From contig CBDDPY010000002.1 in the NCBI GenBank assembly GCA_965232515.1, positions 2,240,001 to 2,304,000 on the forward strand: DNA of 64,000 nt. The letters run 5' to 3'. Positions 2,992 through 41,605 of the stretch are shown here, piece by piece. The notes below the pieces were generated by a model. It had not been told where the DNA came from. It saw only the letters and a program-made list of their open reading frames with translations, and searched no databases. The position numbers and the translations under genes were made by a program. Within the stretch, counting starts at the first letter, position 1, and each line of letters opens with the position of its first letter. This DNA comes from Alphaproteobacteria bacterium. GTDB taxonomy: Bacteria > Pseudomonadota > Alphaproteobacteria > GCA-2731375.

Positions 2992-4023
2992 CTAGTTCTG
3001 ATCTGTGGCGATTTCGAGTTCACGTCTCAATGGTGTTCCGATCGACTTCAGATACGTCATGTATGTCCGCATCATTCGCCACCATGCCCACGTTGCAAGA
3101 AGGGCGAGTGAGAAACCAGCGATGCCAGTTTCGATTACGAAATCGACCTTCACTCCTCGGCAAAAATAAATCGAAAAAGCGAGAAGAGAAAAATATCCGA
3201 CTGACGGAACGGATATAAACGTATCCACAAAATTGAATGTGGCTCTTCTTACAATCTTGTCGCGCCCTCCCTTCAACCCTCTCACCCTTAGGTAATTATT
3301 TCTCCGCTTCGTCTCGTCCGTTTTTGGCGGCATCCAAACCAACGCCACATATTCCGAAAACTCGATCGGATTTGGCGGTTTTTGGGTCGCGCCCTTTTTG
3401 CCTCCCTGCGTGCTCAGCCGCAGCCATAGCAGCCCAGCACCCAACACCATCACAACCGGATAAACGGCCAGGAACAGAAAGCCGAAGTAAGGCGAGGTCA
3501 GATCCGTCAGCCGATCCAGATCAACGTTCCAGGAGTTGGCCGGAAGGCCATGCCGGCTTAGCTTGTCGGGTGCAACAACAGTTCGGACGATCGCGATCTG
3601 CGCCGCACAGGTGAGACCGGGGAGCAGTACCGCGACGGATCGGGCGAGACGCACGCGTGTGCGCAAATAGTCGATCCAATCGACGGCACCACCGCCCTTT
3701 ATCAGGATGGCAGATCGGAATTTCCCCTCGTCAAAGGGATCGTCGCTGCCCGGTCCTCTTTCGTATTTGTTGGCGAACCGCAAGCGCATATGCCGTTCCC
3801 AGCCAACCATGATGGAATCGGCAAGCCGGTCGAACACGACACCGACCAAATAGACCAGTCCCAAAAGGACGGCGCCGGCCCCAATGCCAGTCACCGTCGC
3901 CCAAGGCGTGTTGTTCGAAGAAAAGGGGCCGGCGGCGATTTCCCGAAACCAGGGTAACGCAACGATCGCCAGAACAATACTGCCGATCAGCACCTGTTCG
4001 ACGAATATCTCGGTCGTCTTCAT
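2992..4023 (-). CDS. Multi-pass membrane hypothetical protein
   Basis: 343 aa with about six hydrophobic segments. AT-richer than flanks. ATGA overlap with the NUDIX stop. Confidence 0.75.
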   Translation of the reverse strand: MKTTEIFVEQVLIGSIVLAIVALPWFREIAAGPFSSNNTPWATVTGIGAGAVLLGLVYLVGVVFDRLADSIMVGWERHMRLRFANKYERGPGSDDPFDEGKFRSAILIKGGGAVDWIDYLRTRVRLARSVAVLLPGLTCAAQIAIVRTVVAPDKLSRHGLPANSWNVDLDRLTDLTSPYFGFLFLAVYPVVMVLGAGLLWLRLSTQGGKKGATQKPPNPIEFSEYVALVWMPPKTDETKRRNNYLRVRGLKGGRDKIVRRATFNFVDTFISVPSVGYFSLLAFSIYFCRGVKVDFVIETGIAGFSLALLATWAWWRMMRTYMTYLKSIGTPLRRELEIATDQN

Positions 4024-6749: not shown

Positions 6750-7846
6750 CCGGACGCGCCGCCCTGCTGCCACTGGCCCAGCAGGGCGGCGAAGAGGTCG
6801 GTGTCGGCGACGATGGCGGCGATGCGGCCGTCGATGTCGATCAGCACCGGACGCTTGGTCGCGAGGCGGGCCTGGATCAGGTCTTTCAGCGCGGTCTCCG
6901 GCGTGGCGACGGCGCTGACGCCCTCGCGCAGCCCGCCGTCCCCGAGCCGGACCGTCGTGCCGGCGTCGGGCGGCGGGGCGTCGAGCGGGCGCATGACCTC
7001 GGCCGCGCGCAGGACGTTGAGCGGGTTCATGTGCGCCACGAAGTCGGCGACATAGTCGTTCGCCGGGTTCAGCACGATGTCCTGCGGCGTGCCGAACTGC
7101 ACCACCCGGCCGCCCTCCATGATGGCGATCTTGGAGCCGATCTTGAGGGCCTCGTCGAGGTCGTGGCTGACGAAGATGATGCTGCGACGGAGCTGCGCCT
7201 GGAGGTCGAGCAGTTCGTCCTGCAGCCGGTCGCGGATCAGCGGATCGAGCGCCGAGAACGGCTCGTCCATCAACAGGATCGGCGCCTCGGTGGCGAAGGC
7301 GCGGGCGAGGCCGACGCGCTGCTGCATGCCGCCGGAGAGCTCGTGCACGCGGCGCTCGGCCCAGCCGTCGAGATGCACCAATTCTAGCTGCCGCTCGACG
7401 CGCTGCTGGCGCTCGGGCGCGGGCACGCCGGCGAGCTCGAGGCCGAAGCCGACATTCTCTGCCACCGTGCGCCAGGGCAGCAGGCCGAACTGCTGAAACA
7501 CCATGGCGACGCGGCCGGTGCGCAGGCGGCGCAGCACGTCCGGTTCGCAACGGCTGGGATCGACATAGGCCTGGCCGTCATGCACCAGAGTCTCGCCGCG
7601 GATCACGCGGTTGAGGCCGTTGGCGGCGCGCAATAGCGTCGACTTGCCGGAGCCGGACAGGCCCATCAGCACGACGATCTCGCCTTCCAGCACGTCGAGG
7701 CTGGCGCCGGCGACGCCCAGGACTTGACCGGTCGCTTCCTGGATTTCCTCGCGCGTCTGGCCCTGGTCGATCAGCGGCAGCGCGCGATCGGGCTTGTCGC
7801 CGAAGACGATGTCGACGTCGCGGAAGCGGACGATCGGTTCAGACAT
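6746..7846 (-). CDS. choV: Choline ABC transporter ATP-binding protein
   Basis: GLSGSGKST, LSGGMQQRVGLARA, MDEPFSALDPL. Lies in an operon with choXW next to betI-betA. Confidence 0.88.
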   Translation of the reverse strand: MSEPIVRFRDVDIVFGDKPDRALPLIDQGQTREEIQEATGQVLGVAGASLDVLEGEIVVLMGLSGSGKSTLLRAANGLNRVIRGETLVHDGQAYVDPSRCEPDVLRRLRTGRVAMVFQQFGLLPWRTVAENVGFGLELAGVPAPERQQRVERQLELVHLDGWAERRVHELSGGMQQRVGLARAFATEAPILLMDEPFSALDPLIRDRLQDELLDLQAQLRRSIIFVSHDLDEALKIGSKIAIMEGGRVVQFGTPQDIVLNPANDYVADFVAHMNPLNVLRAAEVMRPLDAPPPDAGTTVRLGDGGLREGVSAVATPETALKDLIQARLATKRPVLIDIDGRIAAIVADTDLFAALLGQWQQGGASG

Positions 7847-7858
7847 GATCCGATAATG

Positions 7859-8692
7859 TCACGATTTCTCCCGGCGGAAGAGCCGGTCGAGAATGATGGC
7901 GATCAGCACGATCGCCAGCCCGACCTCGAAGCCCTTGGCGATGTTGACCTGGTTCAGCGCCCGGAGCGTCGGCACGCCGAGGCCGTCGGCGCCGACCAAA
8001 GCCGCGATTACCACCATCGACAGCGACAGCATGATGGTCTGGGTCAGGCCGGCCATGATCTGCGGCATGGCGTAGGGCAGCTCGACCTTCCAGAGCAGTT
8101 GCCGCTTGGTGGCGCCGAAGGCCTGGCCAGCCTCGATGAGCGGTCGCGGCGTCGAGGAGATGCCGAGATGCGTGAGCCGGATCGGCGCGGGGATGGCGAA
8201 GATCACCGTCGCGATCAGCCCCGGCACCATGCCGAGGCCGAACAGGATCAGCGCCGGGATCAGATAGACGAAGGTCGGGATCGTCTGCATCAGATCGAGC
8301 ACCGGCCGCAGGCCCGCGTACAGCGCCGGCCGCCGCGCCGCGGCGATGCCGACCGGCACGCCGACGCCCATGCAGACGGCCGACGCCGCCAGCACCAGGG
8401 CCAGCGTCTCGGTGGTCTCCTCCCAATAGCCCTGATTGATGATCAGCAGCAGCCCGGCGGCAGTGAAGACCGAGAACAGGACCGAGCGCCGGGCCCAGTA
8501 AGCGAGCGCCGTGACGATAACGACGACGAGCAACGGATGCGGCGTCTGCAGGACCCACAGCAGACCGTCGATAAACGCTTCCAAGCCCAGCGAAACCGCG
8601 TCGAAGAACCAGGTCGCGTTGTCGGTCAGCCAGTCGACGACTGATTTCATCCACTTGCCGACCGGCAGCTTGTTCTCGGTGAGCCATTCCAT
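7859..8692 (-). CDS. choW: Choline ABC transporter permease
   Basis: ProW-like LDLMQTIPTFVYLIP and EAGQAFGA (EAA) motif. Confidence 0.88.
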   Translation of the reverse strand: MEWLTENKLPVGKWMKSVVDWLTDNATWFFDAVSLGLEAFIDGLLWVLQTPHPLLVVVIVTALAYWARRSVLFSVFTAAGLLLIINQGYWEETTETLALVLAASAVCMGVGVPVGIAAARRPALYAGLRPVLDLMQTIPTFVYLIPALILFGLGMVPGLIATVIFAIPAPIRLTHLGISSTPRPLIEAGQAFGATKRQLLWKVELPYAMPQIMAGLTQTIMLSLSMVVIAALVGADGLGVPTLRALNQVNIAKGFEVGLAIVLIAIILDRLFRREKS

Positions 8693-13143: not shown

Positions 13144-14445
13144 TTACTTTCGTCGGTTGTCTTCTCTTGTCTGCCGGTCCAGTGGAGCCTTAGTCGGTTC
13201 CTCTATCGGATTGACTTCTGCTAAATGCGCCATCGCCTGGCGGAAACGACCCATCTTCTTTTGCTTTTCCGTTAGGTTCTTCTTTAGAGTGGCGTCCAAC
13301 GACTTAAATCCTGTCGTCGCCGCGACGTCATCAGAAACACGGCGAACTTCGTTATCGAGATAGGTCTGGATACGCACCGCTTCGGGCGCAGCGCTGATTT
13401 CCTTAACTTGCCGCGAGCGTTGATAAACGAAATGACGGGACGGGTGCTGCAGCATATCGGGTACGCCCTTTGGACAGCAGTGAGTGTCCAGGCAACCAAA
13501 CCGACCATGCAAACGCGAATTGGACTTAAGGAGCGCAGCCGCATCCGCAGGCTTCAAAAGCAAATCAAGCTTGGGAAAATACACGCGTACCGGCAGCCCA
13601 CCACCTTGTTTCGATTTGCGTGGATTTCGCCATGGAGCAGGCCTGAATCCTTCAAGCATCGTAATGCCGTGTGCGATGCCGCCAACAGCACTGAAAGCCA
13701 TTAGACCCAAACCAGGCAAACCGCCAACCTGATCTGCCACAATCGGCACGCCAAGCGCCTGGAAATCGGTGCAAGCCTCTATGTAGGCAGCCGTCTTCTC
13801 GCCCGTCGCATCTGAACCGAAATTCTCAATTCTCAACCACAACGCCTCGAAAGGTGCATCCGCCACGGCGGCAACGAGGGCTCGCCTTTGAACGCGGTCG
13901 CGCAGTATCTGAATTGGCAGTGCCAGCGAGTACAGCAGAGATAATTCCGATCCCTGCCTGTCGAGTGCTTCCTGCAGATAACCCATCATCGCGATGTCGC
14001 GGCGCAACCAAGGATCGTTCGGACTTTGCAAAATATGGGTTGGACCGAGGATTTGTGTGAAACCATAGGTTTGCGCAAACTCAGCGATTTGAGCGGCACA
14101 TTTGCGACCCTGGAACATATCGAAGTCTTCTAGTCGATTCGGACGATCCATCCCCCATGGCAGGTCACCAATTGAGCTCGAATAGCCACCAATAGTTGCA
14201 GCCTTTTGGGTTTGAGGGTCGAGAACAACATCCAGATTTTTCTTGAGAGCTTCGGCAATCAGTTCCTTATGCCGAACGGCACAGGAAGCATCAATTATGA
14301 CACCGAAAAAGTCGCTTATGCCCTCGGCCAGCAGGCCCAGCATATCCTTATGCTGATTGTGACCGACGCGGAGATACAAACCCAACCGGCGCATTTCTGG
14401 GCGCGCTCCGACCGGGCGCGGCAGGTGAACCACTTGACCAGACAT
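13144..14445 (-). CDS. 433-aa hypothetical protein, probable TIM barrel with C-terminal Cys/His cluster
   Basis: Alternating beta/alpha pattern, VVLDPQT, ILGPTH, GCLDTHCC..RHF. RBS AAGGAG. First gene of the Xre-RES operon. Confidence 0.8.
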   Translation of the reverse strand: MSGQVVHLPRPVGARPEMRRLGLYLRVGHNQHKDMLGLLAEGISDFFGVIIDASCAVRHKELIAEALKKNLDVVLDPQTQKAATIGGYSSSIGDLPWGMDRPNRLEDFDMFQGRKCAAQIAEFAQTYGFTQILGPTHILQSPNDPWLRRDIAMMGYLQEALDRQGSELSLLYSLALPIQILRDRVQRRALVAAVADAPFEALWLRIENFGSDATGEKTAAYIEACTDFQALGVPIVADQVGGLPGLGLMAFSAVGGIAHGITMLEGFRPAPWRNPRKSKQGGGLPVRVYFPKLDLLLKPADAAALLKSNSRLHGRFGCLDTHCCPKGVPDMLQHPSRHFVYQRSRQVKEISAAPEAVRIQTYLDNEVRRVSDDVAATTGFKSLDATLKKNLTEKQKKMGRFRQAMAHLAEVNPIEEPTKAPLDRQTREDNRRK

Positions 14446-14464: not shown

Positions 14465-14548
14465 ATTGACTATATCATTGACAAATATATTGCGCAATAA
14501 ATTGTTTTTATAATTGACGTAATTGTTGACGAATTTGTTAATCATAGC
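14465..14548. repeat. Degenerate 12-bp tandem repeat array (about 7 units) in the AT-rich operon promoter
   Basis: ATTGACTATATC/ATTGACAAATAT/ATTGCGCAATAA/ATTGTTTTTATA/ATTGACGTAATT/GTTGACGAATTT/GTTAATCATAGC. Confidence 0.7.
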
Positions 14549-14657
14549 GTCGGGCCAATGCCTGTGTGCATAACCATGATGAAGGGTGGTCCGCTTGGAA
14601 TCACTTTATGGCTGTCGACGCGACCCTCGGCACTACGGCCGCAAATGATCTGTGCCT

Positions 14658-15752
14658 CTACTCCAAGCGTCGCCGGAACAGCCAAGCCGCGGCGCTGAGG
14701 GTGCAGAGGGCGATGAGGGCGAGCGGCCAGGTGTTGTCGACGACGTTGATGGCCGGCATGTCCTTGGTGAAGACGCCGTTGACGACGACGATGAAGTGGC
14801 GCAGCGGGTTGATCAGCGTGAACTGCTGCAGCCAGTCCGGCATGTTCTCGACCGGGCTGGCGAAGCCCGAGAGCAGGATCGCCGGCGCGGCGAAGAGGAA
14901 GCTGCCGAGGAAGGCCTGCTGCTGTGTCTGCGACAGCGAGGAAATGAACAGGCCAACGCCGATCACGGACAGGAGATACATCACCAGGCTGCCGTAGAGC
15001 AGCAGCAGCGAGCCGGTGAACGGCACGGCGAACGCGAAGACCGCGGCGATGAGAAACACCGTGCCGTGGAACAGGCCGATCAGCAGCGACGGCACGGTCT
15101 TGCCGACCAGGATCTCGGCCGGCGTCAGCGGCGAGACCAGCAGCTGGTCGAAGGTGCCGAGCTCGCGCTCGCGCGCCACCGACAGGGCCGTGACCGACAA
15201 GCCGATCAGCAGCGTGATGGTGCCGATCAGGCTCGGCACGATGAACCATTGATGCTCGAGGTTGGGATTGAACCAGTCGCGCGTCACCAGCACGCTCGGT
15301 GGGCCGGCCGCGAGGTCACGATTGAACTGGTCGACGATGCGCGCGGCATAGCCCTGCACGATCTGCGCCGCGTTCGAGCGCCGGCCGTCGAGAATGAGCT
15401 GCGCCGTCGCCGGCCGGCCGGCGGCGATGTCCGCGGAAAAGCTCTGCGGCAGATGCAGCACGACGAGCGCTTCCTGCCGGTCGATGACGGGGCGGATCTC
15501 GGCGACGCCGTCGAGGAAGCGGATCTCGCGGAACGTGGGTGCGCCGACGAAGCGTTGCACCAGCTCGTGCGACCACTTGCCGGGATCCTGGTTGAGCACG
15601 GCCATGCGCACGTTCTCCACATCGAGCGTGGCAGCGAAGCTGAAGACCACGAGCTGCAGCAGCGGCGGCACGATCAGCACCATGCGGCCGCGCGGGTCGC
15701 GCAGGATCGCCAGCAGCTCCTTGACGATCAGGGCGGTGACGCGGCCAAGCAT
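14658..15752 (-). CDS. ybhR: ABC-2 exporter permease (YbhR-like)
   Basis: KELLAILRDP, ARERELGTFDQLLVSP, LSGFASPVENMP. The ORF-track start at 17012 is over-extended. Confidence 0.85.
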   Translation of the reverse strand: MLGRVTALIVKELLAILRDPRGRMVLIVPPLLQLVVFSFAATLDVENVRMAVLNQDPGKWSHELVQRFVGAPTFREIRFLDGVAEIRPVIDRQEALVVLHLPQSFSADIAAGRPATAQLILDGRRSNAAQIVQGYAARIVDQFNRDLAAGPPSVLVTRDWFNPNLEHQWFIVPSLIGTITLLIGLSVTALSVARERELGTFDQLLVSPLTPAEILVGKTVPSLLIGLFHGTVFLIAAVFAFAVPFTGSLLLLYGSLVMYLLSVIGVGLFISSLSQTQQQAFLGSFLFAAPAILLSGFASPVENMPDWLQQFTLINPLRHFIVVVNGVFTKDMPAINVVDNTWPLALIALCTLSAAAWLFRRRLE

Positions 15753-36500: not shown

Positions 36501-36547
36501 GCGGTCTGAAATCAAGCGACGGATTGCCAATCCAATGAAACCGAAGC

Positions 36548-36576
36548 GGCTTGCCGGCTTCCGAAGCGGGCAAGCC
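36548..36576. terminator. GC-rich hairpin after the amidase gene
   Basis: GGCTTGCCGGCTT-ccg-AAGCGGGCAAGCC. No clear U-tract. Confidence 0.4.
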
Positions 36577-36711
36577 TCAAAAAGACAAATCAGATCGGAA
36601 GCATCACACAATTAGGTTGCGATGGAGAGAAATTTTTAAATTTCAAGTCGTGAAACGCATCTAAAAGTTGAATATCCTTCGCAATCGTTTGATTCTTGCG
36701 GAGGGCACAAG

Positions 36712-37704
36712 ATGACCGCGACATTTGCCGAGGCCTACAACGACATACTGGATCGCTTTCAGACAACGTGGAACCCAACCGGGTTCCTCGCCGAACTTCA
36801 AAATACACCGCCGCCGACCCCGATTGTTGGCGAACCATGGGCTCGTCTGATCGTTGAGCATACTGGGAACCAAACATCAGTCATGGCGGGACAGTTTTGC
36901 GACCGCATTGGCACGATCACGGTTGAGATATTTGTCCCGAAGGACGAAGGTCTCACCCGCGGCTATGGGTTGGCCCGAACGATCATTCAAGCATTTCAGG
37001 GTATTCCAACACCGAAAAACGTCTGGTTCAGAAACGCCCGATTGAATGAAATCGGTCTCAGTACCAACTGGTTCCAAATCGATGTACTGATCGATTTCGA
37101 ATACTTTGCTGTTCCTGGTGCATCGGCGCCGGTTCTTCTTAACTTCACGCAGTGGAGTCAGACAGACCGAATTCCTGGAAACTGGGTGTTCAGCAATAAT
37201 GACCGGTCTTTTCAATCACCCGACGATGCTGCTGGTGGGCTTCGCGCCATCCATAGCAATGACGTCGGAAAATTTTACTGGGAAATGTTCTACGCTGGTG
37301 CCAATGCCTCGGGACAGAACTTCCCAGATGCACTGGGGATTGGTGTGGCGCGTTCTGACCAGCCACTAACAGGTTCGTCGAACATCAATCCACCGTTTGC
37401 CTTCATGAACACACCCAGCGGGTTTGTTCCTGGCGCGACGGTCGTGCGTTTCGCATTGGACCTTGATGTGGGAGCGCTTTGGACGTCCAAGGATGCTGTT
37501 TGGGACAATGGCGCTACGACGTTAGAGATCGAAGCCGGAAACACGACAAATGCAACAGGAACCGGCCTCACCGGGAGCTATTTTCCTTACTTCCAAGATG
37601 GTGGAACGGCAGAATCTTACTGGTGGGACGCTAATTTCGGTCAATCCGCCTTTGCTCATCCCGTGCCCAATGGATTTCTCCCAGGCTTCGGTTTGGTCGG
37701 ATAG
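36712..37704 (+). CDS. Fusion of a phage tail-terminator-like domain (DUF4128-like) and a SPRY/B30.2-like domain
   Basis: N-terminus: PWARL.V..R.G.I.VEIFVP..G..A..I..AF..VWFRNA..EIG..WFQIDV..DFEY. C-terminus: FSNND, GKFYWE, IGV, ALDLD.G.LW, YFPY, ANFGQSAF.HP.P.GF. RBS GGAGGG. AT-richer than flanks. Confidence 0.75.
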   Translation: MTATFAEAYNDILDRFQTTWNPTGFLAELQNTPPPTPIVGEPWARLIVEHTGNQTSVMAGQFCDRIGTITVEIFVPKDEGLTRGYGLARTIIQAFQGIPTPKNVWFRNARLNEIGLSTNWFQIDVLIDFEYFAVPGASAPVLLNFTQWSQTDRIPGNWVFSNNDRSFQSPDDAAGGLRAIHSNDVGKFYWEMFYAGANASGQNFPDALGIGVARSDQPLTGSSNINPPFAFMNTPSGFVPGATVVRFALDLDVGALWTSKDAVWDNGATTLEIEAGNTTNATGTGLTGSYFPYFQDGGTAESYWWDANFGQSAFAHPVPNGFLPGFGLVG

Positions 37705-37828
37705 AGAAACTTCGACGCCCCAAGCTAAGCCGTTTTAGAAACAGGCTTTCCGCTGCCTCACCAGCCCAAGTTTGGGCTGCCTAGCCGACGACAACAACGT
37801 TCAATCAACCACCTACGAGACCCGGACG

Positions 37829-38959
37829 CTAGAGCGCCATATACCGCCGGAGGTGGTGGTCCTTGTTGCCGAACATGATGTCGATCATGGTCAGGCGCTT
37901 GAAGTAGTGGCCGACGCGCAGTTCGTCGGTCATGCCCATGCCGCCGTGCAGCTGGACCGATTCCTGGCCGATGAAGCGGCCGCTGTTGCCGATCTGCACC
38001 TTGGCGGCCGAGACCGACTTCTTACGGGCGTTGGCGTCTTCGTCTTCGAGGTTCAGCGTCGCCATGTAGGCCATCGAGCGCGACTGCTCGTATTCCATGA
38101 ACATGTCGACCATGCGGTGCTGCAGCACCTGGAACTTCGACAGCGGCTGGCCGAACTGCTTGCGGGTCTTGAGATATTCGTTGGTGTCGTCGTGCAGCAC
38201 CTTCATGCAGCCAACGGCCTCGGCACAGAGTGCCGCCGTGGCATGGTCGGCGACGGTCTCCAGCAGGGTCAGGCCCTCGTCGACCGGGCCGATGACGGCA
38301 TCGTCGCCGACCGCGACGTTGTCGAAGGCGATCTCGGCCGCGCGCAGGCCGTCGACGGTGGGATAGTCGCGGCGCGTGATGCCGCCGGCCATGGCGTCGA
38401 CCAGGAACAGGGTAATGCCCGCCTTGTCGCGCCGCTCGCCCGAGGTGCGGGCCGAGACGACCAGCATGTCGGCGCAGCCGCCATGCAGCACGACGCCCTT
38501 CTGGCCGTTCAGCACATAGCCGCCGCCGTTTTTCGTAGCGGTCAGGGCGACATCGTGGAGGTCGTAGCGCGATTGCGGCTCGGCATAGGCCAGCGCCAGC
38601 ATGCACTGGCCCTCGGCCAGCTTCGGCAGCCACTCCCGTTTCTGCTCGTCGCGGCCGCCCAGCATCAGGGCGCCGCCGCCCATCACCACGCTGGCGAGAT
38701 AGGGCTCGAGCACCAGGCCGCCGCCGAGCGCTTCCATGATGATCATGGTCTCGACCGGGCCGCCGCCGATGCCGCCGAATTCCTCCGGCAGCGACACGGC
38801 AAGCCAGCCGAGCTCGGCCATCTGCTTCCAGTTGTCGCGGCTGAAACCGTCGGCCGATTGCGCCAGCGCGCGGCGTTTGTCGAACTCATAGGCCTCCCGC
38901 ACGAAACGGTCGACACTGTCCTTCAGGAGCTGCTGCTCCTCCGATAGCGAAAAATCCAT
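37829..38959 (-). CDS. Acyl-CoA dehydrogenase, small (PimD-like) subunit
   Basis: RKQFGQPLSKFQVLQHR, QLHGGMGMTDE. Lacks the C-terminal catalytic Glu (FGNKDHH). Confidence 0.88.
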   Translation of the reverse strand: MDFSLSEEQQLLKDSVDRFVREAYEFDKRRALAQSADGFSRDNWKQMAELGWLAVSLPEEFGGIGGGPVETMIIMEALGGGLVLEPYLASVVMGGGALMLGGRDEQKREWLPKLAEGQCMLALAYAEPQSRYDLHDVALTATKNGGGYVLNGQKGVVLHGGCADMLVVSARTSGERRDKAGITLFLVDAMAGGITRRDYPTVDGLRAAEIAFDNVAVGDDAVIGPVDEGLTLLETVADHATAALCAEAVGCMKVLHDDTNEYLKTRKQFGQPLSKFQVLQHRMVDMFMEYEQSRSMAYMATLNLEDEDANARKKSVSAAKVQIGNSGRFIGQESVQLHGGMGMTDELRVGHYFKRLTMIDIMFGNKDHHLRRYMAL

Positions 38960-39021
38960 GACGCTTCCCTAGTAACTCTTATTTCGCGGCCCTTCGGGCC
39001 CAGGCTCGATCGGCCGCTCGC

Positions 39022-40218
39022 TTAAAGGCCAAGCACCATCTTGGCCATGATGTTCTTCTGGATCTCGTTGGTGCCGCCGTAGATCGACGTCTTCCGCCAA
39101 TTGAAATAGGTCGGCGCCAACGGTGGCGCGTAAGCCGGCCCGATCGGCGCCTCGTTCCAACCGTAGTCGAGCGCCTCGCGCACGTAGGGCTGGGCGTAGT
39201 AGCCGACCGCCTCCATCAACAGCTCGCTGATGCCCTGCTGGATCTCGGTGCCCCGGATCTTCAACAGGCTGGTCTCGGCGCCGGGCGGCTTGCCGGCGTT
39301 CTCGCTGATGACGTAGCGCAGCTCGGTCATTTCGAGCGCGCTGAGATCGATCTCCAGCTTCGCCACCTTCTCGCGGAAATCGGTGTCCTCGATCAGCGGC
39401 GCGCCGGACATGGTCTCGTGGCCGGCGATGTCCTTGAGACGCTCGATCTGCGCCTTCGAGCGGCCGACGGCGGCGATGCCGGAGCGCTCGTGGCCAAGCA
39501 GGAACTTGGCGTAGGTCCAGCCCTTGTTCTCCTCGCCGACCAGGTTCTCGGCCGGCACGCGCACGTCGCTGAAGAACACGGTGTTGATCTCGGCGCTGCC
39601 GTCGATGGTGACAATGGGCTGCACCTCAACGCCGGGTGTGGTCATGTCGATCAGCAGGAAGGAAATGCCCTCCTGCGCCTTGGCGTCGGGATCGGTGCGC
39701 ACCAGGCAGAAGATCATGTTCGCGTGCTGGGCCAGCGTGGTCCAGGTTTTGGAGCCGTTGACGATGTAATGGTCGCCGTCGCGCACGGCCCGCGTGCCGA
39801 GCGAGGCGAGATCGGAGCCCGAGCCCGGCTCGGAATAGCCCTGGCACCACCAGTCCTCGCTGGTCAGGATGCGCGGCAGGTAATGCGCCTTCTGTTCATC
39901 GCTGCCGAACGTATAGATGACAGGCGCGACCATCTTGGTGCCGAACGGCACGACACGCGGCGAATGGCCGCGGGCCAGCTCTTCCTCGAAGATGTAGCGC
40001 TGCATCGGTGTCCAACCGGTGCCGCCATGCTCGACCGGCCAGTGCGGCGCCAGCCAGCCACGGTCGTTCAGAATACGCTGCCAGCGGACGAAATCGTCCT
40101 TCTCCAGCTTGCGTCCGTGCGCGACCTTTTCACGAATATCGGCCGGCAGGTTCTCTTCGATAAAGCCGCGCACCTCGCGCTGAAAAGCGAGATCGTCATC
40201 GGTCAGTTGCAGGTCCAT
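39022..40218 (-). CDS. Acyl-CoA dehydrogenase, large (PimC-like) subunit
   Basis: WWCQGYSEPGSGSDLASL, IYGGTNEIQ. Confidence 0.9.
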   Translation of the reverse strand: MDLQLTDDDLAFQREVRGFIEENLPADIREKVAHGRKLEKDDFVRWQRILNDRGWLAPHWPVEHGGTGWTPMQRYIFEEELARGHSPRVVPFGTKMVAPVIYTFGSDEQKAHYLPRILTSEDWWCQGYSEPGSGSDLASLGTRAVRDGDHYIVNGSKTWTTLAQHANMIFCLVRTDPDAKAQEGISFLLIDMTTPGVEVQPIVTIDGSAEINTVFFSDVRVPAENLVGEENKGWTYAKFLLGHERSGIAAVGRSKAQIERLKDIAGHETMSGAPLIEDTDFREKVAKLEIDLSALEMTELRYVISENAGKPPGAETSLLKIRGTEIQQGISELLMEAVGYYAQPYVREALDYGWNEAPIGPAYAPPLAPTYFNWRKTSIYGGTNEIQKNIMAKMVLGL

Positions 40219-40326
40219 GGCGCGCGCGCCTCCTCATGTCAGCTCGGCTGCTTTACCACCTGACGTAGCACGATCCGACGGCGCATCAAAGCCTGCCAGC
40301 GGTGACGTTTCGGAGTCGGTTCGATT

Positions 40327-41523
40327 TCAGAGCCCAAGCACCATTTTGGCGATGATGTTCCGCTGAATCTCGTTCGAACCGCCATAGATCGTCGCCGCCC
40401 GGCTGAACAGATAATCGGGCATCTGCGCCGCCGCGTGCGCCGGGCCGATCGGCTCCTCGTTCCAACCCTCGGCCAGGCGCGCCAGATCGTAGGGCGCGGC
40501 GTAATAGCCCAGCGCTTCGACACAGAGCTCGGTGATCTGTTGGCGAATTTCCGAGCCGCGGATCTTCAGCATCGAGGCCTCGGGCCCAATCGGCTTGCCG
40601 GCCGCCTCGTCGGCGAGCTGTCGCAGACTGGTATATTCCAGCGCCGTGAGCTGGATCTCCGTCGCGGCGATCTTTTCGAGAAAGCTGTTGTCCTCGATCA
40701 GCGCGCGGCCGTCCGCGGTCTCGCCGCGGGCCACTTCCTTCAACCGCCGCAGGCGCTGCTTCGAGGGGCCGACCTCGGCGATGTCGGTGCGTTCGAAACC
40801 GAGCAGGAACTTGGCATAGGTCCAGCCCTTGCCCGCCTCGCCGATCAGGGTCTCGACCGGCACGCGCACGTCGGTGAAGAACACCATGTTGACGTGATGG
40901 CTGCCGTCGATGGTGATGATCGGCTGGACCTCGATGCCGGGCGTCGTCATGTCGGCGAGCAGGAACGAGATGCCCTCCTGCTGTTTGCCCGAATTGTCGG
41001 TCCGCACCAGGCAGAAGATCCAGTCGGCCCAATGCGCCAGCGTGGTCCAGGTCTTGGTCCCGTTCAGCACGTAGTGATCGCCGTCGCGCACGGCCGAGAT
41101 CTGCAGCGAGGCCAGGTCCGAGCCGGAGTTGGGCTCGGAGTAGCCCTGGCACCACCAGTCGTCGCTCGCCAGGATGCGCGGCAGGAAGCGTTCCTTCTGT
41201 TCGGGCGTGCCGAAGGTGTAGATCACCGGCCCGACCATCTTCAGCCCGAAGGGCGAGATCGGCGGCGCGTCACCGGCCGCCAGTTCCTCCTCGAAGATGT
41301 AGCGCTGCGTCGCGCTCCAGCCCGTGCCGCCATGTTCGACCGGCCAATGCGGCGCGACCCAGCCCTTGTCATGGAGCGTCTTCTGCCAGTCGACGAAATC
41401 GTGCTTTTCCAGCGGCAGGCCGGCGCGCATTTTCGCGGCCGTGGCCGGCGCTACCGATTCGCGGATGAACCGCCTGACCTCGTCACGAAAGGCGAGATCG
41501 TCGGCGCTGAACGATAGATCCAT
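40327..41523 (-). CDS. Acyl-CoA dehydrogenase, second PimC-like paralog
   Basis: WWCQGYSEPNSGSDLASL, IYGGSNEIQ, and the same C-terminus AKMVLGL. Confidence 0.9.
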   Translation of the reverse strand: MDLSFSADDLAFRDEVRRFIRESVAPATAAKMRAGLPLEKHDFVDWQKTLHDKGWVAPHWPVEHGGTGWSATQRYIFEEELAAGDAPPISPFGLKMVGPVIYTFGTPEQKERFLPRILASDDWWCQGYSEPNSGSDLASLQISAVRDGDHYVLNGTKTWTTLAHWADWIFCLVRTDNSGKQQEGISFLLADMTTPGIEVQPIITIDGSHHVNMVFFTDVRVPVETLIGEAGKGWTYAKFLLGFERTDIAEVGPSKQRLRRLKEVARGETADGRALIEDNSFLEKIAATEIQLTALEYTSLRQLADEAAGKPIGPEASMLKIRGSEIRQQITELCVEALGYYAAPYDLARLAEGWNEEPIGPAHAAAQMPDYLFSRAATIYGGSNEIQRNIIAKMVLGL

Positions 41524-41605
41524 GGCAGGAAATTCCCCGTAAAAAGCCAAAGAAGGCGATGGACACGGCCGGGACAAATATTGTCACACAAACCAACTAC
41601 CGTTG

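Follow-up and report, generated by a model that had tools for sequence, protein, structure and literature searches.

A siphophage tail terminator fused to a SPRY domain, encoded by a lone gene in an alphaproteobacterial chromosome

The DNA analyzed here is a stretch of 64,000 nucleotides (the window) from contig CBDDPY010000002.1 of the alphaproteobacterial assembly GCA_965232515.1. At 36712..37704 on the + strand (ATG start, stop codon included) it encodes a protein of 330 residues, P0001, which joins a siphophage tail terminator to a SPRY domain and is called the fusion protein below. Here a virion protein of a known kind has gained a new domain, and its gene stands by itself in a chromosome, which is unusual. 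The combination of terminator and SPRY domain is very rare, nearly unique, and the gene is of phage origin and was acquired horizontally. We regard the identity of the gene and its orphan status as near certain. Its role is a more tentative matter: it may be a retained gene whose product interferes with the assembly of infecting phages.

The N-terminal half is a siphophage tail terminator

A tail terminator is a hexameric ring that caps the tail tube and receives the stopper ring of the head. Residues 1-135 of the fusion protein (36712..37116, + strand) match the phrog_179 "tail terminator" profile at E 4.1e-19, covering profile positions 14-152 of 162, and a phrog_179 scan of the whole genome gave the fusion gene as the sole match (E 2.2e-20). 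An earlier interpretation made from the letters and translations of the window, the sequence-only reading, had described this half as DUF4128-like. PF13554 (formerly DUF4128) reaches only 13.2 bits against the fusion protein (E 0.1), under the cut-off of 27, whereas P0153, a stand-alone relative 41% identical to the N-terminal domain, carries PF13554. The domain keeps 15 of the 15 invariant positions of an eight-sequence family alignment and is 37-43% identical, end to end, to seven relatives.

The homologues in phages are terminators by position as well. By tblastn, 235 of 50,697 phage records match the protein, in every case over no more than about residues 1-131 to 173 and over less than 80% of the query. 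PhiJL001 gp77 scores best (1e-22); PaMx25-like Pseudomonas phages and Rhodobacter phages come next. RcSimone-Hastad and PaMx25 have the homologue between annotated head-closure/FII and large tail-tube genes, and PhiJL001 gp77 lies between gp76, which aligns with the head-closure protein Hc1, and the 552-residue gp78.

We modeled the fusion protein with AlphaFold2 (AF2) from a 45-row alignment (mean pLDDT 85.6, pTM 0.67) and compared the model with 48,161 PDB representatives by VIA-align. The N-terminal domain has helices at residues 5-23 and 81-95 and strands that include 105-131, which is the gpU-type fold. Residues 4-136 matched the FCWL1 neck chain (9jlf_D; Z 14.0, 128 aligned) and the SaPI1 neck (9mu2_D; Z 12.5), and further matches to the domain were the pyocin R2 collar (6u5f_A; Z 12.2), Mu (Z 11.6), the RcGTA terminator (6tba_4A; Z 11.6), lambda gpU (3fz2_A; Z 11.1), R4C (Z 10.6), and T5 p142 (8bcp_C; Z 10.1). 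PhiJL001 gp77 was recovered from BFVD at E 3.4e-11 (TMt 0.84). A sequence-profile search of the PDB with the terminator alignment gave 0 matches at E<=10; it was the fold search that found terminators instead. A complex prediction for four copies of the N-terminal domain (140 residues) returned a score of 0.28 and a mark of 0.42 and weighs neither way.

In the available text of two papers, the E-loop of the R4C and lambda terminators touches the tail tube (PMC10276861, PMC10721106). The E-loop hairpin of the fusion protein is short; since PhiJL001 gp77 has the same short hairpin, this is natural variation. In fold and invariant positions the domain is like the PHROG 179/PF13554 terminators (PhiJL001 gp77, PaMx25 gp16, and the lambda gpU fold). 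It differs from them in setting: PHROG 179 terminators lie between head-closure and tail-tube genes, whereas the fusion gene has no phage neighbors. Stand-alone relatives stop four residues past an FEY motif, and the fusion chain runs on from there through the linker GASAPVL (residues 136-142; 37117..37137, + strand), which starts where stand-alone terminators end. The pLDDT falls to 60 over residues 131-140. The N-terminal half is thereby confirmed as a complete siphophage tail terminator.

A SPRY domain from a phage-borne family forms the C-terminal half

Residues 143-330 (37138..37701, + strand) form a SPRY/B30.2-type beta-sandwich, assigned from Foldseek, VIA-align, and HMMER relatives. 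A Foldseek search of the PDB with this domain gave 149 matches at E<=1e-3, and ranks 1-50 were all SPRY domains, led by those of RanBP10 and RanBP9 (from E 2.8e-8) and including Ash2L, SPSB2, and DDX1. VIA-align with residues 142-330 gave the DDX1 SPRY domain (4xw3_B) at Z 16.8 (root-mean-square deviation [rmsd] 2.4, 156 aligned), Ash2L at Z 16.5, and TRIM67 at Z 16.0, and BFVD gave a "B30.2/SPRY domain-containing protein" at E 7e-11. The order of terminator, short linker, and SPRY-like sandwich proposed from the translation is therefore upheld by profile and fold searches, and the C terminus, ...DANFGQSAFAHPVPNGFLPGFGLVG, reads as it had been quoted. Compared with the eukaryotic SPRY/B30.2 domains (DDX1, Ash2L, RanBP9/10, SPSB2, and TRIM), the C-terminal domain has the same two-sheet sandwich (Z 12-17, with 140-162 residues aligned) and shares the GK.YWE and NFG motifs, but identity is only 11-23%.

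The sequence relatives of this domain are largely viral. HMMER with residues 130-330 against 1.84 billion representatives found 262 proteins at E<=1e-3, of which the sole relative at 88% identity was P0002. Neighbors of the domain in the Atlas are viral clusters (score 0.94), in which 17-35% of members carry PF00622. That family was not reported for the fusion protein itself at E<=10, and among the ten top multidomain SPRY relatives 8 lie above its cut-off, 1 lies below, and 1 has no match. In multidomain relatives the SPRY domain often stands alongside Laminin_G_3, glycine-rich, or DUF7483 domains. Stand-alone relatives of about 200 residues match phrog_10080, 37978, 27411, and 19943, the last annotated as "virion structural protein." In IMG/VR, SPRY relatives are encoded in 150 of 367 pattern-matched stretches. 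A search of metagenome contigs with the alignment of the fusion protein's cluster yielded only two distant SPRY proteins (in L019 and L020); in L020 the domain sits within a 952-residue protein that adjoins a fiber-like protein. Among cultured phages, the C-terminal domain matches in 1 of 50,697 records, a hypothetical protein of a cyanophage. The middle of the domain is longer in phage SPRY relatives than in the fusion protein. The SPRY half thus belongs to a family otherwise found in phage fiber-like and virion proteins.

The second-best SPRY relative, P0003, is a giant multi-SPRY protein of 5,719 residues with five matching stretches (41% identity). We also considered that the SPRY half came, via deletion, from the large tail-tube protein encoded 3' of terminators, and rejected this, as the C-terminal domain matches just the one cyanophage record and no similarity to four tube proteins was found at E<0.01.

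The fusion is very rare

When 5.8 billion proteins were searched by word index, the P0002 cluster alone came back at full length or longer; the remaining matches were two stand-alone terminators. This 90%-identity cluster has four members: P0002 and P0154 (both 330 residues), P0155 (273 residues), and the window protein. Among 150 listed SPRY relatives, only the P0002 cluster has a terminator domain. Peptide patterns did not find the fusion protein in 185,579 species representatives, and it was not found in the 60 relatives examined, 32 of them genomes of the same family. The whole protein had no match in viral contigs. BFVD held no credible two-domain match, its long alignments having an rmsd of >=11 Å and TM of <=0.28. 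A literature search gave no report joining a tail terminator with a SPRY domain.

We collected IMG/VR terminator loci with a degenerate DNA pattern for the VWFR..R..E.G motif. This gave at least 120 loci, 114 of them with a terminator of the family. Stand-alone terminators have 136-160 residues, and the fusion protein carries 195 extra residues. By contrast, the C-terminal extension is at most 5 residues in all 114 loci listed (six open reading frames [ORFs] touch the locus end). The sequence-only reading had raised the possibility that full-length fusion homologues sit in phage tail operons; with 0 of 114 listed viral-contig terminators extended, the fusion is not a routine virion gene. An Hc1 gene lies within the locus in 108 of the 114 among those listed. 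Across seven other genomes of the class and three IMG/VR loci, 7 of 8 cases have Hc1 in the same locus, no more than about 1.5 kb from the terminator.

A SPRY domain on another phage neck ring

One uncultivated phage type, seen in 2 of 80 SPRY loci (L058:3215-5185, + strand, and L053:109-2085), encodes a 656-residue protein with two SPRY domains and Hc1. In L058, the SPRY domains occupy residues 4-174 and 214-389, and the C-terminal head-closure domain matches phrog_161 at E 2.3e-20. A phrog_179 terminator (E 2.9e-30) starts 4 nucleotides 3' of the SPRY-Hc1 gene and is 36% identical to the N-terminal domain of the fusion protein (E 2e-26). The first L058 SPRY domain is 28% identical to the C-terminal domain over 191 residues (E 3e-11), including the ANFG.(S/T)AFAH..P.GF end. 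The surrounding genes encode a major head protein, an Ad1 adaptor, a 593-residue tail protein, and a chaperone. Because this SPRY-Hc1 gene lies in an intact module, SPRY collars on neck rings exist in a virion context. Such a SPRY-decorated neck ring seems to be undescribed.

The two arrangements share the SPRY family and its attachment to a neck ring protein, in L058 and L053 beside a phrog_179 terminator. They differ in that L058 and L053 carry the SPRY domains N-terminally on the head-closure ring, within a full head-neck-tail module, whereas the fusion protein has one SPRY domain, C-terminal and on the adjacent ring, the terminator, and is encoded by a lone chromosomal gene. In L205, a SPRY-family ORF (7773-8042, - strand; cut by the contig end) lies two genes upstream of Hc1 and a terminator, a hint that SPRY proteins may be a repeated feature of the head-neck modules in these phages.

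The architecture of the fusion protein probably originated in a phage, where six SPRY domains would have formed a collar at the neck. By analogy with the Ig domain at the C terminus of lambda gpV (the N-terminal domain of gpV has the terminator fold) and with the contractile collar-sheath handshake, the SPRY domain of the fusion protein would point outward.

The gene forms a single-gene islet

The fusion gene is present once in the genome, at 2.277 Mb within a contig of 7.33 Mb, and has core metabolic genes on either side. It occupies a low-GC islet (GC, guanine-plus-cytosine content) that runs from the stop codon of an amidase gene to that of a convergent acyl-CoA dehydrogenase gene (36501..37828; 1,328 nucleotides, GC 0.52). 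The GC of the coding sequence is 0.529 and that of the AT-rich leader (36577-36711) is 0.385, against 0.654 for the whole window. At third codon positions (GC3) the gene has 0.547, versus 0.80-0.90 in four adjacent genes.

The 211 nucleotides 5' of the gene are non-coding and AT-rich and include a Shine-Dalgarno-like GGAGGG (36700..36705, + strand) 6 nucleotides 5' of the ATG. The last host-like sequence ahead of the AT-rich leader is a G+C-rich hairpin just 3' of the amidase gene (36548..36576, + strand; inverted repeat I2, with 14-nucleotide arms, 93% complementary, spaced by 1 nucleotide), which is probably the amidase terminator. Within the leader, the palindrome GAAATTT-TT-AAATTTC (36629..36644) is a possible operator or promoter element, judging from its sequence. 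A promoter scan found no sigma-70 consensus promoter. In the bacterium the fusion gene stands alone as a putative small transcription unit of its own.

By Pfam, the upstream neighbors encode a chromate transporter, a rhodanese, a transglutaminase-like protein, and the amidase. Three tandem acyl-CoA dehydrogenase-like ORFs of 376, 398, and 416 residues follow 3' of the islet (37829-41577, - strand), two assigned by Pfam and the third (40327-41577) by eye. The ORF coordinates, the AT-richer composition, the palindrome, and the amidase and acyl-CoA dehydrogenase neighbors given in the sequence-only reading were all confirmed in the sequence and by Pfam.

A repeat scan of the islet flanks showed no convincing direct repeats, and no remnant of head-closure (Hc1) or tail-tube genes was found in them. 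There is no tRNA gene in the window, and no integrase was seen near the fusion gene. NCBIfam had no match for the fusion protein, and no PADLOC model matched its gene, in a 2023 library that might not include Tab and Tai, two systems discussed below.

Patches at 3-4 kb and 12-15 kb of the window are likewise low in GC (0.53-0.55). Their ORFs, at 2992-4023, 13144-14445, and 14542-15249 (all - strand; 343, 433, and 235 residues), have no Pfam, PHROG, or PADLOC match, and these patches may be further small acquired islets.

Partner phage genes were not found in the genome

We searched the 7.4-Mb, 96.25%-complete genome for seven hallmark families: the capsid family PF05065, the portals PF04860 and PF05136, the terminases PF03354 and PF03237, the tape measure PF10145, and the sheath PF04984. 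There were 0 matches, with control genomes positive, for these families, which do not cover all phages. When the ORFs of at least 100 residues from five related phage loci were compared with the genome by tblastn, they matched the fusion gene only, and that gene has no paralogue in the genome. The orphan status claimed from sequence is thus borne out, with no phage neighbors or remnants at the locus. The sequence-only reading had gone further and placed no other virion genes in the 64 kb. This agrees with a scan of 12 window ORFs and the genome-wide result, a coverage that falls short of gene by gene.

About ten islands of low GC, 6-30 kb in size and unannotated here, are present in the genome. 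Those of 20-30 kb (GC 0.53-0.57) are on C2 at about 2.963-2.988, 4.2365-4.260, 4.463-4.483, and 5.647-5.677 Mb and would be candidate sites for a cryptic mobile element. The assembly includes three small extra contigs, among them C3 (5,516 bp, GC 0.458; also L016), with three ORFs of at least 120 residues, and C4 (10,862 bp, GC 0.423; also L017), with none. With so few ORFs, C3 and C4 look like non-bacterial DNA, perhaps of a host organism, rather than plasmids or phages.

Variants of the fusion protein have stayed intact

The window protein shares 87-88% identity with each of the other three cluster members. Of these, P0002 and P0154 are full-length, and P0155 is a variant without the first 57 residues. 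Between P0001 and P0002 there are 41 differences, of which 19 fall among the 135 positions of the N-terminal domain and 22 among the other 195. In neutral, substitution-only simulations (n=2000), a stop codon had been gained in 85.6% by the divergence of P0001 and P0002. Conservative replacements (BLOSUM62 >= 0) make up 27 of the 41, versus the 46.9% that non-synonymous changes at random would give (binomial p 0.011). These intact, conservatively changing variants are modest evidence for constraint, as judged from sequence comparison, wherever that constraint acted.

The gene also appears in independent sequencing runs. Run X3 gave pieces of the gene with 0 differences, and a 420-nucleotide contig from run X4 joins the amidase end to the gene start with 11 differences. 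Run X5, labeled a coral metagenome, gave two gene pieces (36967-37343) with 0 and 2 differences. Amidase and acyl-CoA dehydrogenase flank pieces from the same run were about 10% different, which at this low depth may mean either that several organisms are mixed or that the gene moved recently. No RNA library is listed among the runs that contain the window, and one poly-A RNA run gave 0 reads, which weighs neither way.

Possible roles of the fusion gene

The explanation that we favor, tentatively and with somewhat less than even confidence, is that the fusion gene is a retained stand-alone gene whose product would cap the tails of infecting phages and so act by dominant-negative assembly interference. 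Subunits of the fusion protein would co-assemble into, or cap, the tails of infecting phages that have phrog_179-type necks. The resulting ring would be docked poorly by the invader's own head-closure protein, and heads and tails would be left unjoined. The narrower proposal, that a captured SPRY-tagged terminator has been kept as a one-gene restriction factor which poisons head-tail joining of infecting siphophages, we consider somewhat less likely. The sequence-only reading had likewise suggested a decoy that blocks head-tail joining, which we keep as a candidate role. Since no partner tail or head genes were found with the families searched, the fusion protein could join no other structures than the tails of such phages. 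The clean one-gene islet with its leader and Shine-Dalgarno sequence, together with the conservatively evolving variants, argues for retention and has to be weighed against the base rate of relics.

Several points weigh against assembly interference by a retained gene. The fusion gene lies outside any prophage, satellite, or defense island, unlike Tab and Tai, and has no PADLOC match. L058 shows that a SPRY domain on a neck ring fits a virion module, so that SPRY at the neck is not in itself an assembly block and need not block anything. The probability of an intact ORF under neutral substitution alone is about 0.14, the cluster variants could have diverged inside phages, and the GC3, which is unameliorated, would suit a recent relic that has stayed intact. 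With only four members known, this is not a widespread system.

The gene could instead be an inert relic, intact after an illegitimate insertion or as the last piece of a deleted prophage, but functionless and bound to decay. We hold this to be only slightly less likely than assembly interference by a retained gene. A phage structural gene found alone in a chromosome is usually a remnant. With GC3 so far from that of the adjacent genes there has been little amelioration, and the insertion may be young; the absence of partner genes and of a sigma-70 consensus promoter, the other small low-GC islets with family-less ORFs in the window, and the survival of the ORF in about 14% of the neutral simulations all fit such an origin. 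Against a relic, the islet comprises a single complete gene, preceded by an AT-rich, non-coding leader and a Shine-Dalgarno sequence, and it is not a slice of a late operon, given that Hc1 adjoins the terminator in 108 of 114 listed viral loci and the islet contains no piece of Hc1 or tube genes. Of the three other variants, two have kept their full length at 12% divergence, with conservatively biased replacements, and the left junction recurs in the contig of another run. The suggestion of a lone phage remnant in the sequence-only reading thus accounts for where the gene came from but sits poorly with a clean islet without phage fragments, its own leader and Shine-Dalgarno sequence, and intactness at that divergence.

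It is improbable, though less so than the explanations that follow, that the protein has another role, either as a host-supplied collar that is neutral or useful to phages or through a SPRY domain acting in cellular or host-organism interaction. SPRY domains are general protein or glycan binders, and one of the fold matches is a nematode SPRY effector in complex with a plant receptor. The bacterium may live with a eukaryote: small shares of the window occur in runs labeled coral and marine metagenome, and the species label of the best-matching runs carries poly-A RNA libraries. L058 has SPRY-decorated neck proteins in a normal virion module. Against another role, the N terminus (MTATFAEAYND...) has no evident signal peptide by eye, the nearest SPRY relatives are viral rather than eukaryotic, and the neighboring genes offer no secretion context.

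Terminators work only on tail tubes, and a resident tail-like particle, whether a gene transfer agent (GTA), an F-type tailocin, a satellite, or a cryptic prophage, might receive the fusion protein in trans. The RcGTA terminator (Z 11.6) and the pyocin collar (Z 12.2) do have the same fold, and about ten low-GC islands are unannotated. But the seven hallmark families have 0 matches in a 96%-complete genome, which argues against a GTA or tailocin partner; phrog_179 and the structural ORFs of the five related loci match the fusion gene only, and there is no paralogue. The decorated GTA or tailocin component proposed in the sequence-only reading is accordingly disfavored, and we judge a part supplied in trans very improbable.

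Hardest to credit is that this is an ordinary virion gene of an unrecognized resident or co-assembled phage, made to look orphaned by limited searches or misassembly: seven Pfam families do not cover all phage types and the assembly has three small extra contigs, but the gene is inside a 7.33-Mb contig with core metabolic genes on both sides, independent contigs match the gene and its left junction, C4 has no ORF of at least 120 residues and C3 has three, and tblastn with the structural ORFs of related phages matches the fusion gene only.

Comparison with known systems

Accessory domains are known on other tail and neck proteins. In the available text on phiCD508 (PMC13324602), the terminator gp53 is like the fusion protein in carrying an accessory domain on a ring-forming protein, but there the extra domain repeats the terminator fold. 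Carbohydrate-binding modules are likewise appended to the necks and tubes of lactococcal 936 phages, as described in PMC6669499, although both folds and carriers differ from those of the fusion protein.

The C-terminal Ig-like domain of lambda gpV is a further example of a decorated tail protein, and its fold differs from SPRY. In none of these cases does a SPRY domain stand on a siphophage terminator.

The proposed outcome of assembly interference by the fusion protein would be that of Tab and Tai, for which the accessible sections of the two papers (PMC10884400, PMC11364771) describe infection that proceeds without producing infectious virions, as tails fail to be completed or joined. The steps differ: Tab targets the tape measure protein and Tai a tail-tip or central-fiber step, whereas the target proposed for the fusion protein is head-tail joining. 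According to the same sections, Tab and Tai reside in prophages, phage-inducible chromosomal islands (PICIs), or P4-like satellites with counter-defense genes, a context that the fusion gene lacks. Neither paper mentions a tail terminator, and no statement that Tab or Tai is homologous to a virion protein was found in them.

Significance

Even as a relic, the fusion protein represents a new domain architecture, a terminator with a SPRY domain. Together with the SPRY-Hc1 protein of L058, it shows a shuffling of SPRY modules among phage neck rings, a little-described site of decoration. If the gene is indeed kept for the benefit of the cell, it would, as far as our literature searches reach, be the first known case of a bacterium sabotaging phage assembly with a homologue of a virion ring protein, and it would add a mechanism to the class of Tab and Tai. 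It would also offer a one-gene system for the specificity of terminator-tube and terminator-stopper recognition. Such a gene would be a bacterial counterpart of the mammalian gag-derived restriction factors, a defense built from the virus's own structural protein.

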